In this document: one piece after another, positions 841 through 5,680 of the stretch | How positions within the stretch are numbered: the first letter of the stretch is position 1 | Layout of the letters: each line of letters opens with the position of its first letter | Assembly (NCBI GenBank): GCA_966211795.1 | Contig: CBIHNW010000025.1 | Location: 3,787 to 67,786, forward strand | Reading direction: 5' to 3' | Source of the DNA: an uncultured Bdellovibrio sp. | GTDB taxonomy: Bacteria > Bdellovibrionota > Bdellovibrionia > Bdellovibrionales > Bdellovibrionaceae | DNA length: 64,000 bases | Position numbers and translations under genes: made by a program | The notes under the pieces: model-generated | What the model was told of the DNA's origin: nothing | The model's database searches: none | The model's input: only the letters and a program-made list of their open reading frames with translations

Positions 841-1629
841 TTATTCCCAGGCAGGTTTTACTTTTGCCAGAAAAGCTTTCATGCCGATTTGACTTTCACT
901 GTCGGCAAAAGCTTTGCGATATGATTTATTCTCGAGCTCAAAAGCTGTTTCTGCCGATGCGCCGAAACTCTCTCGTAATACTTGTTTGCAAAGAGACACG
1001 GCATGCGGAGATTTTTCTTTGATCTCATTCAGGGTTTGCAAAGCGGCCCGGTTCATCTGGTCGCGATTTTCGAAGACTTCATTCACGAGATTCCATTCCT
1101 TTGCATTCGCTGCAGACACCCGTCGCCCGGTCATCATCAGTTCTTTGGCTTTGGCGAGCCCCAAGGCCCGCACAAATCGAATGCAGCCACCAAAGCCCGG
1201 GATCAAACCCAGGGCCACTTCGGGTTGTCCAAAGCTTGCGGACCGGGTTGCGTAAATAAAATCGCAGCTGAGAGCAAGCTCGCAGCCTCCGCCCAGGGCG
1301 ACGCCATGAACGCAAGCGATGACCGGAATTGGCAAAGACTCGAGAAGATCTCCGACCGCTTGACCCAAAAGTCCAAACTGGGCGCCTTCCTCCGGCGTCA
1401 TCTGAGACATCTCTTGAATATCGGCACCGGCTATAAAGGCGCGATCCCCCTCTCCGGTCAGCAAAACTCCCCGCAAGCGCCCGAATTCCTTTGCGTGAAT
1501 CTGCTGAAGAATTTCACGGAAATCTCGAAGCATCGAGCTGGAAAGGGCATTGGATTTTTCCGGTCGCGCAATGGTGACAGTTAAAATCTGGTCGGCCATT
1601 TCGCATTTGATAAATTCATATTTTTTCAT
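841..1629 (-). CDS. enoyl-CoA hydratase/isomerase (crotonase) family protein
   Basis: LTVTIARPEKSNAL, GEGDRAFIAGADIQEM and ALGGGCELALSCDF are typical crotonase-fold signatures. Start moved to the MKKYEF ATG at 1629, which has an AAGGGAAG RBS. The ORF track extends to 1674. Confidence 0.85.
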   Translation of the reverse strand: MKKYEFIKCEMADQILTVTIARPEKSNALSSSMLRDFREILQQIHAKEFGRLRGVLLTGEGDRAFIAGADIQEMSQMTPEEGAQFGLLGQAVGDLLESLPIPVIACVHGVALGGGCELALSCDFIYATRSASFGQPEVALGLIPGFGGCIRFVRALGLAKAKELMMTGRRVSAANAKEWNLVNEVFENRDQMNRAALQTLNEIKEKSPHAVSLCKQVLRESFGASAETAFELENKSYRKAFADSESQIGMKAFLAKVKPAWE

Positions 1630-1686
1630 ACTTCCCTTTGCGGACAGAATCATTTTGAACGGAGATCGATTCATTAAGATAAGACA

Positions 1687-3015
1687 CTAGGAATCCCAGA
1701 TCGCTCCGAAGGCCGGGATGCCACGGCTTTCCAACTCATGCACCACGTGCCAAGTGACTTTCTTATTCGAGATGCAGATCACGGCTTCGGCATCAAAATC
1801 TTGATAAGCCTTTAGCGCGAGCTTCACCAGATCCGGTTTCCCTTGCGCGTCTGTGTCCCAGATGACGGCTTCGGGTTGCGACTGATAAATTTCCTGAACC
1901 AATTCGTGTCCATAAGTTTTTTCCGGATTTCGAGTGGACCAGATCAACCGGGCCGGCACCTCTTTTGAAAAGAGATGCGGCAGACAAGGCCCAATGCCAC
2001 TGCCGGTTGCAATCCAGACCACCCGTTTAAAAAGTTTTTCAACATGACCGACACCGGCCACAGGAATCCCCTTCACCCACAGATCACGCGGCTTCTGATC
2101 GATCAATCGACCGGTCCAGTCCCCGGCCCGAGAGATCGTCAATCGAAATCCTTCTTGGGTTGGATGCGGAACATTGGCAAACGAATGCCACTCGAGCCAT
2201 GGGCTACGGCTCAGATCGGTGGATGAGCCGGCGAAAGGTTTGACTCCATACGAGAACGCCGCCAAGGCCACATGCGAGGACGGCGTCACGCAATCGACCC
2301 GCACCCGCCGAAGCCTGAGCCAAGGCAGGGCGACGCTGACGGTGGCGAGCATCAAAACCAGAGTCGTGAGCAGCTGGGCGCCAGACACTTGCGGCGAATT
2401 CAAGTGAAGATAAATCGTTTGCACCCAAAAGAGATAAAGCGACGTCCACAGTCCAAAGCGTCCGACGATTTCAAACTGATTGTGGAACCTGCTGCGAATC
2501 CTAGGAAGCGCCATCGTTATCATGATCAGAAGAACCGACAAGTGCACCACCAACAATCGAAACAGCGAGAGATCTCGAATCAGCAACGCCTGCAATCCCA
2601 TCCAACAAAACCCACTGAAGAAAGCGCCGACGTGAATTCCGCCAAAATGATAAACTTTGCCGGCCGCCCAGCGCAGACTGAGAGGCCAGCTCGGTGGCAT
2701 GCTGGTGGCGATGCGGAACAAGAGATTGATCGTCTCTTGTTGTCGAATGAAGATGGCGGTCGCAAAATTCGCCAAGACCAGATTTCGCGCGACATTCGCG
2801 CCTTCAGTCGGCGATAAGAAAAGAAAATCTTTGAAATGAAAAAACAAGGCAAGATTCAGCGAAGCCACGAGCAATGCCCAGCGATTGTAAGGCATCAACA
2901 GCGGATGCCGAAACAAGCAATACAGAAAGCCGCGCTTTTGCAAATTTCTTTTTCTCGCATGGCTTTGTTCGATGGATCTTTGAAGTGGCGGGAATGCCAG
3001 CAGTGCAGTTTTCAT
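1687..3015 (-). CDS. polytopic membrane protein with a C-terminal ferredoxin-reductase-like FAD/NAD(P)-binding module
   Basis: The N-terminal ~240 aa have about 6 hydrophobic helices with several His. The C-terminal ~200 aa carry a VWIATGSGIGP dinucleotide-binding motif of the FNR / ferric-reductase type. The start overlaps the upstream stop (ATGA at 3012-3015). Confidence 0.6.
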   Translation of the reverse strand: MKTALLAFPPLQRSIEQSHARKRNLQKRGFLYCLFRHPLLMPYNRWALLVASLNLALFFHFKDFLFLSPTEGANVARNLVLANFATAIFIRQQETINLLFRIATSMPPSWPLSLRWAAGKVYHFGGIHVGAFFSGFCWMGLQALLIRDLSLFRLLVVHLSVLLIMITMALPRIRSRFHNQFEIVGRFGLWTSLYLFWVQTIYLHLNSPQVSGAQLLTTLVLMLATVSVALPWLRLRRVRVDCVTPSSHVALAAFSYGVKPFAGSSTDLSRSPWLEWHSFANVPHPTQEGFRLTISRAGDWTGRLIDQKPRDLWVKGIPVAGVGHVEKLFKRVVWIATGSGIGPCLPHLFSKEVPARLIWSTRNPEKTYGHELVQEIYQSQPEAVIWDTDAQGKPDLVKLALKAYQDFDAEAVICISNKKVTWHVVHELESRGIPAFGAIWDS

Positions 3016-4598
3016 AAAAATCCTCCGATGCCAGCCTCAAGCATTCGGCTCTGCTGCTGTTGATGAGCGACCGCCAGGATCGTGAGGGCCCGCTTGTCGA
3101 TTTTACCCCGACTGGTGACCGGAAGCTCGTCCATCGCCAGCACCAAAGAAGGCGTGCAGTAATAAGGTAGCAAATGCGCGACTTGGTTTTTAGCGCTCTC
3201 AACATCGACGTGACCGGGTCTCACGAAGGCCACCAAGTTTCGGCTGTCGAGCTTCAAGGTCACGGCCTGCTCGATTTCAGGAATCTTCTCTAAAGCGGCC
3301 GACACCGAGTCCAGCTCCACCCGAAAGCCACGGATCTTCACCTGATCATCGGTGCGGCCAAAATGTTCAAGCTCCCCATCGGCGGTCCATCGGCCAAGGT
3401 CCCGGGTGCGAAACATTTTTCGTCCGCCACCCAAGAAGGGATCATCTTTGTATCGCTCTTCCGTCAGGACGGGATTGCCAATATACCCCAAGGACACACA
3501 GTCACCGCCCGCCCACATCTCGCCAATCTCGCCGATCGCACACGGTGTGAGATCTTCATTCAGAATGTAGACGCTATTATTGGGCGTGGGCTTACCGATA
3601 GTCAGTTTCCCTCTCTGTGGATCATACTCGTGAACCGTGTTGACGATCGTGACTTCGGTGGGCCCGCACGAATTGTGAAAGCGGCAAAACTGGGACCACT
3701 TCTCGGCTAAAGAGGCGGGGCAGGGCTCGCCGGCGACCGCGGCCACTTTGATATTTCGGCAAAGATTGGCATCCAATCCTGCTAGGATGCTTGGGGTTCC
3801 GATCACGACGTCGACTTGGCTGACGGCCTCTTGGATGCTTTTCCCCCGAATGATCAACTCGCAGCCATGCGACAAGGCCCCAAGAATTTCCCAAGCCGCC
3901 ATATCGAAGGCGATATTGAGAATCTGCGAAACCTTCTGACCGGCCCGCAAGCCTAAATCCCCAGGCGAGGTCAGTAGAATATTGCAAAGATTTTGATGCG
4001 TGACCATCACTCCATTGGGAAAGCCCGTCGTTCCAGAGGTGAACAAGACAAAGCAAAGCTGATGGGCCAAAGCCACATTTCCAGCATCGATTTGCGGATT
4101 CTCGGCTGGTGCGTCTGATTGTTTCTGCATGAATTCATCAATCGCCAGCAATGGAATGTCTTTGAATTCTGGCAATGTCGGCACAAGATCTTTCAGCGTC
4201 AGGATCATTTTGGATTTTGATGTTCGCGCAACGTGTTGAAGCTGAGGGCCCGGCGCAATCCGCGAATCTTGCGGGACATAGGCCGCGCCAGTTTTCAAAA
4301 TGCCCAAGATGCCCACAACCATGGAAATCGAGCGCTCTAGAAAAAGCGCAATGTGATCTCCCGGACGAACTCCTTGATGAATTAAATGTTTGGCCAGAAG
4401 ATTCGCCCGACGGTTCAACTCACCATAGGAAATCGTTTGGTCCAAGTGGGACACGGCCGGGGCCTGCGGATGCCGTCTCACCTGATCTTCAATCGCCCGG
4501 TGGATCAACGAATGCGGTGGCTTCACGCTTTCGGCGAAGCCAAATTTTTCAAAAAGAATTTGATCTTGATTGGATAAAGTTTGCAGTTGCGCTTTCAT
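3012..4598 (-). CDS. stand-alone NRPS-type adenylation (AMP-binding) enzyme
   Basis: Core motifs read in order: ISYGEL (A1), LKTGAAYVPQD (A2), FTSGTTGFPNG (A3), FDMAAWE (A4), NSCGPTE (A5), GEMWAGGDCVSLGY (A6), FRTRDLG (A7), GRTDDQVKIRGFRVEL (A8), LPYYCTPS (A9), SRGKIDKRAL (A10). The protein ends after A10 with no carrier domain. Confidence 0.85.
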   Translation of the reverse strand: MKAQLQTLSNQDQILFEKFGFAESVKPPHSLIHRAIEDQVRRHPQAPAVSHLDQTISYGELNRRANLLAKHLIHQGVRPGDHIALFLERSISMVVGILGILKTGAAYVPQDSRIAPGPQLQHVARTSKSKMILTLKDLVPTLPEFKDIPLLAIDEFMQKQSDAPAENPQIDAGNVALAHQLCFVLFTSGTTGFPNGVMVTHQNLCNILLTSPGDLGLRAGQKVSQILNIAFDMAAWEILGALSHGCELIIRGKSIQEAVSQVDVVIGTPSILAGLDANLCRNIKVAAVAGEPCPASLAEKWSQFCRFHNSCGPTEVTIVNTVHEYDPQRGKLTIGKPTPNNSVYILNEDLTPCAIGEIGEMWAGGDCVSLGYIGNPVLTEERYKDDPFLGGGRKMFRTRDLGRWTADGELEHFGRTDDQVKIRGFRVELDSVSAALEKIPEIEQAVTLKLDSRNLVAFVRPGHVDVESAKNQVAHLLPYYCTPSLVLAMDELPVTSRGKIDKRALTILAVAHQQQQSRMLEAGIGGFL

Positions 4599-4741
4599 TT
4601 TGTCTCCCGTTCATGCCAGCGACCCATCGGCGGATCACTTTCTCAGTTGGACCCCGTGTAATCGAGCTTGGGGCCGAGTAAAAGATACCCGGAATGAAAC
4701 AGGTGTTTCATATTTGGGGGCACCTCGGGTATCTTGCGGAA

Positions 4742-5680
4742 ATGCTAAGCGAATTGGCGTCTTTGAAATTTTACGACCTCGAAGTTTTTGTAGAAGTTTC
4801 TCGTGCGAAATCCATTCGCGAGGCCGGCCGCCGTCTCAATAAAACTTCGGGACAGATTTCAAAATCCATTCAGGGTCTCGAGAAAAGATTGTCGCGCAAA
4901 CTGCTCAAGCGCTCGGCCCAAGGCGTGATCTTGACGGAGCAGGGAATTGAACTTTTGGCAATGACCCAAGTTCTTTTCCAAGAGGCCGATAAGATTGAGC
5001 GCTGGGTTGGCGGCAAAAACAAAAATCAAGAGACCAAGGTCTTAGCCATCGCCAGCAATAGCTTTTTGAACAATCACCTGGTGGCGCCCACCAGCTCGAA
5101 ACTGAATTTCGATGCTGAAGGGATCAGCCTTCGCTTTATCGATTTGCCACCGGACCAATTGATCCCGCAGGGACTGCGCGGACTTTTTGAAGTGGCGGTT
5201 CACTATGGCAGCTTCTCGTGGCCGTCCACCTGGGTGAGCAAAGCCCTTGGAAAATCCAGGTGGGTTCTTTGCGCCAGAAACCAGCATCCCTTACCAAAAA
5301 AGCCAAATCTTGAACAAGTCCTTCAGTACCCTTTCGTCATCCCCGCCTATTCCAGCGCCGAAGGCCTGACCCGAGGAAATGACCAATTTCCACTGCCGTA
5401 TTCAAAACGCAAAGTGGGGCACGAAGCGACAACGGCCGATACGGCCATGGCGGTGGTCATGAATTCAGATCAAATGACTTTCATCCCCGAGATCTCCGCC
5501 AAATTTTTCCTGCAGACCGAAGTTTTACGCGAAGTGAAGATTCGCGACTTTCCGGCCAGCGAGAAAATCGAGAAAGAGATTTACCTTTCGGTGAAAGCAG
5601 ATTCGGTTCAACAGTCCGTCTTCATGAAGCTGTTTGAAGAAATGCGCAAAAGGTTGCAAGAAGGCCATCGCTTTCGTTGA
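4742..5680 (+). CDS. LysR-family transcriptional regulator
   Basis: N-terminal wHTH: LKFYDLEVFVEVSRAKSIREAGRRLNKTSGQISKSIQGLEKRL. It is divergent from the adenylation operon. The ATG at 4742 puts the HTH at the usual distance from the N-terminus. The ORF-track start is 4694. Confidence 0.85.
   Translation: MLSELASLKFYDLEVFVEVSRAKSIREAGRRLNKTSGQISKSIQGLEKRLSRKLLKRSAQGVILTEQGIELLAMTQVLFQEADKIERWVGGKNKNQETKVLAIASNSFLNNHLVAPTSSKLNFDAEGISLRFIDLPPDQLIPQGLRGLFEVAVHYGSFSWPSTWVSKALGKSRWVLCARNQHPLPKKPNLEQVLQYPFVIPAYSSAEGLTRGNDQFPLPYSKRKVGHEATTADTAMAVVMNSDQMTFIPEISAKFFLQTEVLREVKIRDFPASEKIEKEIYLSVKADSVQQSVFMKLFEEMRKRLQEGHRFR

Follow-up and report, generated by a model that had tools for sequence, protein, structure and literature searches.

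A conserved three-gene cassette in an uncultured Bdellovibrio and its relation to the fungal TmpL, TmpB and NPS12 proteins

Relation to the fungal TmpL, TmpB and NPS12 proteins

The fungal proteins NPS12, TmpL and TmpB combine in a single polypeptide an adenylation (A) domain of the nonribosomal peptide synthetase (NRPS) type with a membrane-embedded flavoprotein module (PMC2766074, PMC4804170, PMC2823734). Bacterial counterparts were analyzed here in a contig of an uncultured Bdellovibrio sp. (GenBank assembly GCA_966211795.1, contig CBIHNW010000025.1), of which a stretch of 64,000 nucleotides (nt), hereafter the window, contains an operon encoding a stand-alone A enzyme, a membrane flavoprotein and an enoyl-CoA hydratase (ECH) of the crotonase type. 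TmpL comprises an AMP-binding domain together with six transmembrane (TM) helices and an FAD/NAD(P) domain without thiolation or condensation domains, and redox homeostasis, conidiation and virulence depend on it; its recombinant FAD/NAD(P) domain binds flavin and is the only fragment of any family member for which this was demonstrated (PMC2766074). TmpB of Aspergillus nidulans belongs to a sporulation pathway, and a conserved ECH gene adjoins tmpB in the Aspergilli (PMC4804170). Bacterial stand-alone A domains were found by Bushley and Turgeon to be nested in the NPS12 clade (PMC2823734). One stand-alone A domain, Sare0718 of Salinispora arenicola CNS-205 (specificity code DMWIAAAIVK), activates L-Ala in vitro with a Km of 0.12 mM, and its gene is surrounded by genes for an ECH, a 'hypothetical' protein and a phosphopantetheinyl transferase (PPTase) (PMC3360062). 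With the fungal fusions and the Salinispora neighborhood on record, the description of the locus in a first-pass annotation as 'not a textbook arrangement' was overstated. The cassette is real and strongly conserved, but it is a bacterial split member of a family that is known from fungal genetics and whose Salinispora version has been touched biochemically. The locus is probably the bacterial split-gene form of TmpL/TmpB/NPS12 with a companion ECH and serves as an accessory small-molecule cassette and not as a peptide assembly line.

Positions and strands were taken from the open reading frame (ORF) list of the window, with which the four genes described in the first-pass annotation (A enzyme, membrane protein, crotonase and a divergent LysR regulator) agree. 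The cassette comprises the following features:

3012..4598, minus strand: A enzyme, stand-alone NRPS-type adenylation enzyme of the NPS12/TmpL type (528 amino acids; TIGR01733, PF00501)
3012..3015, minus strand: overlap (ATGA) of A-gene stop and membrane-gene start, read in the sequence; translational coupling
1687..3015, minus strand: membrane flavoprotein of the TmpA/TmpL type (442 amino acids; precomputed Pfam family PF26733; NOX fold by AlphaFold2 and Foldseek)
841..1674, minus strand: enoyl-CoA hydratase (crotonase; ORF of 277 amino acids; PF00378; likelier start ATG 1626)

The overlap of 4 nt between the TGA of the A gene and the ATG of the membrane gene, as reported in the first-pass annotation, was seen in the sequence. 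An exhaustive search of cluster representatives with the membrane protein retrieved proteins of approximately 1000 amino acids that match it in their C-terminal 400 residues and carry an N-terminal AMP-binding domain. Such fusions occur in Mycena (named 'nonribosomal peptide synthetase 12'), Apiospora, Tricholomella and Aspergillus. The Apiospora protein of 1025 amino acids (P0158) accounts for both window proteins: residues 4-519 of the A enzyme align with its residues 5-533 (40% identity, E 9e-124) and residues 43-442 of the membrane protein with its residues 620-1025 (38% identity, E 4e-83), where both proteins end in ...DS. PF26733 is precomputed for the window membrane protein as well as for P0158, and an ECH_1 gene adjoins the Apiospora fusion gene. 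Both the A-domain module and the module of six TM helices with an FAD/NAD(P) domain that define TmpL/TmpB/NPS12 are thus present in the window, divided between two polypeptides.

Conservation of the cassette

More than 3,200 close homologs of the membrane protein (50-60% identity) were found across phyla, all with precomputed PF26733. Scanning a single genome of each species yielded at least 583 confirmed matches, of which the best 80 loci were retrieved as the basis of the locus counts given below. These loci stem from Bdellovibrionota, Bacteroidota, Chloroflexota, Actinomycetota, Myxococcota and Gammaproteobacteria. Of the 80 loci, 76 have an A-enzyme ortholog (47-65% identity) directly upstream on the same strand or fused to the membrane protein, and in 78 a crotonase gene directly follows the membrane gene. 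A single ORF of approximately 1005 amino acids unites the A and membrane genes in 18 loci; at most of the unfused loci the two genes overlap by 1-8 nt or lie within approximately 10 nt of each other. The pairwise identities of the two proteins co-vary (r = 0.84). As the same gene order was found in approximately 76 of 80 loci and in six phyla, the arrangement is far beyond chance, and the pairing of A enzyme and membrane protein described in the first-pass annotation recurs in other genomes together with the crotonase.

The distribution of the cassette is patchy: among 301 genomes of the phylum to which the window belongs, 8 carry it. A tree placed the window within a Bdellovibrionota clade (support 99), in which the sister lineage L001 has the fused form. 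Its closest tree relatives, L001 and L002 (Pseudobdellovibrionaceae), both carry fused A and membrane genes while those of the window are split with the 4-nt overlap, which points to a recent fission or fusion within the clade. Short TmpA-like members of the family without an A domain also exist. The sole other recurrent neighbor is a DUF6733 gene, located right after the crotonase gene in 29 of 30 Bacteroidota loci (e.g. L006:12259-13005, plus strand). It encodes a protein of approximately 245 amino acids with a signal peptide and a C-terminus (...IPF) as in outer-membrane beta-barrels, and it may serve to export the product or to take it up. A further membrane-protein homolog (L003:8742-12284) was found in a metagenome-assembled genome labeled as a cyanobacterium and branches inside the Bdellovibrionota clade. 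It is flanked by genes for a methyltransferase of the cyclopropane-fatty-acid-synthase type and for a protein with a metallo-beta-lactamase fold, which could reflect a lipid-modifying context, horizontal transfer or a mis-binned contig.

Properties of the encoded proteins

The 528-amino-acid A enzyme matched PF00501 (E 1e-66) and scored above the cut-off of the NRPS adenylation-domain model TIGR01733 (334.6 versus 317.4 bits). The first-pass annotation had listed all ten core motifs and an end right after A10. Motifs A1-A10 are indeed legible and the protein ends 25 residues past the A10 motif SRGKIDK, but two of the motifs each contain one departure from the usual residues:

4011..4040, minus strand: A3 P-loop TSGTTGFPNG, Asn195 for the usual Lys; bacterial-branch signature
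3345-3365, minus strand: A7 motif FRTRDLG, Arg for Gly, read in the sequence

The xPNG form of A3 was found in 75 of the 77 bacterial cassette A domains and also in the Salinispora tropica ortholog of the active Sare0718, so the Asn is best regarded as a lineage signature and not as a defect; the substitution was accordingly rejected as a sign of inactivity. PKG is retained in five fusions of fungal or probably eukaryotic origin (P0132, P0147, P0155, P0158 and others). In the A7 motif (Y/F)xTGDL, where Gly is usually invariant, approximately 60 of the 77 bacterial domains share the Arg of the window enzyme, and the fungal members keep Gly.

The reported absence of a carrier domain was borne out. 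No PP-binding domain was matched at E<=0.1 in the A enzyme or the membrane protein. What separates A10 from the first TM helix is a short, poorly conserved stretch of low confidence in the structural model. Natural fusions of the A and membrane proteins likewise gave no PP-binding match, and a hidden carrier domain was therefore rejected. No carrier domain is encoded on the window's contig, all four PP-binding matches of the genome being located on other contigs, and a conserved carrier gene was not found among the 80 loci. In the whole genome (94.6% complete), the condensation domain PF00668 had no match, and the A enzyme of the window is the only A domain that passes the cut-off of TIGR01733. 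The thiolation domain (in protein or cluster) and the condensation domain that mark an NRPS module or assembly line are thus both missing. Many orthologs of the A enzyme are called 'D-alanine--poly(phosphoribitol) ligase subunit 1' in JGI records. This naming looks like systematic misannotation, because the DltA models of NCBIfam stay far under their cut-offs (195 versus 476 bits for the A enzyme) and the DltB/DltC/DltD context is missing.

Extraction of the specificity code, which had been proposed in the first-pass annotation, was carried out with the A4, A5 and A10 motifs of PheA, and not an alignment with 1AMU, as anchors for the ten Stachelhaus positions. The resulting code of the window enzyme is DMWIAASIVK (residues 232, 233, 236, 266, 287, 289, 310, 318, 319 and 499). 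Asp235 and Lys517 in PheA numbering bind the alpha-amino and carboxylate groups of the amino acid. The corresponding D232 and K499 of the window enzyme match the register of FDxxxWE and SRGKIDK, as is expected of an amino-acid-binding pocket, and the anchored register reproduces the pattern of the published Sare0718 code. The pattern DMWIAA[S/C/A/G]I[V/I]K is present in 69 of 77 bacterial cassette A domains and the other eight differ at one or two positions. It was also found in the fungal protein P0132 (DMWIAACIVK) and the fusion protein P0147 (DMWIAASIVK), one of which is a named fungal NPS12. Since the pocket is near-invariant over six bacterial phyla and two fusions, all family members should, as far as the code can tell, activate one and the same small amino acid. 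A small side chain would suit the pocket, whose lining residues (M, W, I, I, V) are bulky.

Local Pfam, NCBIfam and PDB sequence searches with the membrane protein gave no match, and a literature search for PF26733 returned no result. An AlphaFold2 model of the 442-amino-acid protein (mean pLDDT 81.3, pTM 0.77) contains six long TM helices followed by a beta-barrel and a Rossmann module, i.e. an FNR-like dehydrogenase domain. Foldseek comparison with the PDB returned full-length matches to SpNOX (8qt6, TM-scores 0.60/0.65), DUOX1, NOX5 and NOX2 (E ~1e-10), and FNR-family reductases matched the C-terminal half, which is the composition of a six-TM ferric-reductase-like protein with an FNR-like domain. 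Sequence identity to NADPH oxidases is only 13-17%. In a family profile, W-H277-S-F-A...GDWT aligns with the NOX2 FAD motif HPFT...GDWT, with Ser for the Pro of HPF; the NAD(P)H dinucleotide motif GSGIGP (residues 338-343) and the S-T-R motif are intact. The third residue from the C-terminus is aromatic (W440) and corresponds in position to the flavin-stacking F397 of SpNOX, a protein of 399 residues (PMC11564096). Both GSGIGP and W440 show little or no variation, and the HPF(S/T)-like, GxGxxP and C-terminal aromatic signatures are all recognizable. The fold and the motifs agree with the membrane partner with a flavin/NAD(P)H module that the first-pass annotation had described, and the predicted structure does not lack the site on which that description depends.

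The heme-binding part of the fold differs from that of the NADPH oxidases. The two hemes of SpNOX are bound by two His pairs on TM3 and TM5 (PMC11564096). Among 109 homologs of the membrane protein (29-54% identity), H128 and H178 are the only universally conserved TM histidines and are located at the cytoplasmic ends of TM3 and TM5. R91, R115, R174, E182, R186 and W190 are conserved as well, and the cytoplasmic loop between TM2 and TM3 is long and extremely conserved. No partner His was found 12-14 residues after H128 or H178, so that the superfamily arrangement of two b-heme-ligating His pairs with a spacing of 13-14 residues is absent, and in a weak profile alignment the heme His of NOX2 fall on G188 and L189. 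Judged from conservation and the model, the protein would harbor at most one redox center (heme or metal) near the cytoplasmic face beside FAD. As the four NOX heme His are not kept and H128 and H178 are nearer to the cytoplasmic ends, a transmembrane electron relay to O2 is unlikely. A canonical NADPH oxidase was rejected because the protein lacks the outer heme His pair and has the other pair in a shifted position. One protein retrieved by the cluster-representative search (P0125, 607 amino acids) has a cyclic-nucleotide-binding domain where the A domain would be, ahead of the TM/FNR module.

The crotonase matched PF00378 (E 3e-60) and belongs to the crotonase fold. Its best NCBIfam match is the short-chain enoyl-CoA hydratase PRK05809 at 230 bits, below the equivalog cut-off of 394. 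The two catalytic Glu residues, E132 (GGGCE) and E152 (QPE) in the 277-amino-acid ORF, are present in 77 of 77 cassette crotonases, which indicates a genuine hydration or dehydration of a 2-enoyl-thioester. The longest ORF begins 12 nt past the stop of the membrane gene. A second ATG at 1626 is preceded by AAGGGAAG and leaves a gap of approximately 60 nt, and alignments of homologs begin there. From this sequence context the ATG at 1626 is likely to be the true start, which fits the distance of 57 nt given in the first-pass annotation.

The divergent side of the locus includes the following features:

4694..5680, plus strand: LysR-family regulator (ORF of 328 amino acids; HTH_1 and LysR_substrate; likelier start ATG 4742)
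4599..4741, no strand: divergent control region that separates the A and LysR genes (143 base pairs if LysR starts at 4742)
4694-4711: perfect 7-4-7 palindrome ATGAAACAGGTGTTTCAT of 18 base pairs, in the divergent region if LysR starts at 4742; candidate LysR operator

Both LysR domains scored over their cut-offs (PF00126 with 52 bits, PF03466 with 54 bits), which assigns the protein to the LysR regulators. The HTH_1 match starts at residue 28 of the long ORF and ATG 4742 is therefore the likelier start. No good match to a sigma-70 promoter was found in the divergent region, and promoter and terminator scans were no richer in sites than those of shuffled sequences. The gene is divergent in the window as described, but among the 80 loci only one has a LysR homolog in the vicinity of the cassette; other lineages have other regulators, e.g. 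two-component genes. LysR was thus rejected as a part of the conserved unit.

Proposed function and comparison with known systems

In the proposed mechanism, the soluble A enzyme would dock on the cytoplasmic face of the membrane protein and, by analogy with Sare0718, adenylate L-alanine or a similar small amino acid. The aminoacyl group would be handed on without a carrier protein, in the simplest case to CoA or pantetheine, or straight to the membrane enzyme. The membrane flavoprotein would perform one redox step, in which electrons pass from NAD(P)H to FAD and to a single heme or metal center at the inner leaflet without a transmembrane relay, and the hydratase would add water to, or remove it from, an enoyl-thioester intermediate. 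The end product would be a small metabolite, either diffusible or membrane-associated; according to fungal genetics, the homologs have to do with an extracellular signal in development and with redox balance. In the window genome, the operon is probably switched on by the divergent LysR regulator. An aminoacyl-CoA or aminoacyl-pantetheine intermediate is suggested because a crotonase needs a thioester and the A domain is the only possible thioester-maker in the cassette. The formation of aminoacyl-CoA by A domains in isolation has been reported. An aldehyde, which the first-pass annotation had considered as a product alongside a lipid head-group modification, is less likely since the FNR/NOX-type module is an electron-transfer module and not a thioester reductase. 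A possible, if rather doubtful, extension of the mechanism is that this carrier-independent route, from an NRPS-type A domain acting on an alanine-like amino acid, directly or via CoA, to a one-center NOX-fold flavoenzyme and a crotonase, yields a new metabolite class that is identical to the fungal TmpL/TmpB product, its chemistry being conserved from bacteria to fungi.

Several observations weigh against the proposed small-molecule cassette and its mechanism. The membrane-protein homolog at L003 has neither an A gene nor a crotonase gene beside it. No ECH neighbor was found at the Mycena locus examined, and the fungal neighboring ECH is only 25-31% identical to the bacterial ones and would count as no more than a putative ortholog across kingdoms. 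The constant presence of the crotonase is the single observation from which transfer to CoA is deduced. Specificity for L-Ala goes back to one in vitro study that was confined to the 20 proteinogenic amino acids and whose authors warn that the in vivo substrate may differ (PMC3360062); Sare0718 was compared here via its published code, its neighbors and its S. tropica ortholog and not by its own sequence. In the weak profile alignment, H178 is located approximately 8-10 residues to the cytoplasmic side of the inner-heme His of NOX2, an offset that makes a heme at this site uncertain.

Among the alternatives, a route resembling beta-oxidation fares best, and even this is improbable. The A enzyme would act as an aminoacyl-CoA ligase, the flavoprotein would dehydrogenate alanyl-CoA to 2-aminoacrylyl-CoA and pass the electrons into the membrane, and the crotonase would hydrate the product to a seryl-, lactoyl- or pyruvoyl-type CoA. 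The fixed order of ligase, membrane flavoprotein and two-Glu hydratase parallels FadD/FadE/FadB, the missing outer heme pair speaks against an outward electron relay as in NOX, and the short A. nidulans homolog TmpA is in one pathway with the 4CL-like acyl-CoA ligase AfeA (PMC4804170). However, all characterized modules of the NOX/FNR fold take electrons from NAD(P)H, for which the GSGIGP and S-T-R motifs are intact here, and the oxidation of an acyl-CoA by this fold is without precedent.

A classical NRPS function in trans, in which the A enzyme loads a carrier encoded elsewhere (compare DltA, VibE and YbtE) and the membrane protein and crotonase are mere neighbors or tailoring enzymes, is very unlikely. 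This role was proposed by Bushley and Turgeon for bacterial stand-alone A domains (PMC2823734) and would agree with the DltA-type names of many homologs, with the PPTase gene that adjoins the Salinispora cassette (PMC3360062) and with the four PP-binding ORFs of the genome. Against it speak the location of these ORFs on other contigs, the lack of a condensation domain and of a second A domain scoring over the TIGR01733 cut-off in the genome, and the A/membrane fusions (18 bacterial loci as well as fungi), none of which has a PP-binding match. In addition, neither a carrier gene nor a counterpart of the Salinispora PPTase is conserved among the 80 loci, and the score of the DltA models is far below their cut-off. 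The idea of a regulated oxidoreductase, i.e. an NAD(P)H-dependent reductase of quinone, lipid or O2 for redox homeostasis with the A domain as a sensor or regulator binding both amino acid and ATP and no intermediate, draws on the accumulation of reactive oxygen species and the oxidant sensitivity of fungal tmpL mutants (PMC2766074), the regulatory cyclic-nucleotide-binding domain of P0125 and the short TmpA-like members, but it is just as unlikely, given that over six phyla a strict pocket and the catalytic residues of the A domain, the A10 Lys among them, are kept, that the Salinispora enzyme turns over ATP with L-Ala (PMC3360062) and that the constant canonical crotonase is left unexplained.

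TmpL/TmpB/NPS12 were described nearly two decades ago; fungi pathogenic to plants and humans require them to sporulate normally, to keep their redox balance and to be virulent. The same machinery is present as a compact operon of two to three genes in at least several hundred bacterial species, as the scan indicates, and the A domains annotated as 'DltA' or 'NRPS-like' in many genomes are part of a distinct carrier-less system. In the open literature searched, neither an explicit equation of the bacterial three-gene cassette with TmpL/TmpB and its ECH neighbor nor a description of the near-invariant pocket code or of the reduced His set of the membrane domain was found. The bacterial system is tractable: purification of a close relative of the soluble A enzyme has been achieved once, the crotonase is a standard one, and the 442-amino-acid membrane protein resembles SpNOX, a success of cryo-electron microscopy. 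Once solved, the bacterial chemistry would probably solve the fungal one.

Compared with known systems, the window membrane protein shares with the NOX family (SpNOX, NOX2, NOX5 and DUOX1) the fold, the HPF(S/T)-like FAD motif followed by GDWT, the GxGxxP motif and the C-terminal aromatic residue, but not the four heme-ligating His on TM3 and TM5. TmpA of A. nidulans is a membrane flavoprotein of the same family whose genetic partner in the formation of a developmental signal is a separate adenylate-forming enzyme, the 4CL-like AfeA (PMC4804170); AfeA resembles coumarate-CoA ligases, whereas the ligase partner in the window is an NRPS-type A domain. The Salinispora cassette has the same gene set and order as the window (A, PF26733, ECH). 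At the S. tropica locus (L083, CP000667.1), a PPTase gene is followed by the A gene (548 amino acids), which overlaps by 4 nt with the PF26733 gene (463 amino acids), and the ECH gene; its A domain is 56% identical to the window A enzyme and has the identical code DMWIAASIVK. The PPTase gene, of the Sfp type (L083:4099-4755) and 246 nt upstream of the cassette, is found in Salinispora only and is absent from the window. Without a counterpart among the 80 loci, it was rejected as a fourth conserved gene. In the 2012 study of Sare0718, the 'hypothetical' neighbor was not recognized as a membrane oxidoreductase and the link to TmpL/NPS12 was not drawn (PMC3360062).

The A domains of the fungal proteins keep the A3 Lys and the A7 Gly, whereas the bacterial ones have Asn in A3 and mostly Arg in A7. 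The crotonase gene is part of the same operon in bacteria, unlike in the fungal TmpL/TmpB/NPS12 genes, and the fungal phenotypes (conidiation, reactive oxygen species, virulence) have no obvious bacterial equivalent. TmpL of Alternaria brassicicola and Aspergillus fumigatus, TmpB of A. nidulans and ChNPS12 of Cochliobolus heterostrophus nevertheless consist of the same three modules in the same order as in the window, joined in one polypeptide in the fungi and encoded by two translationally coupled genes in the window.

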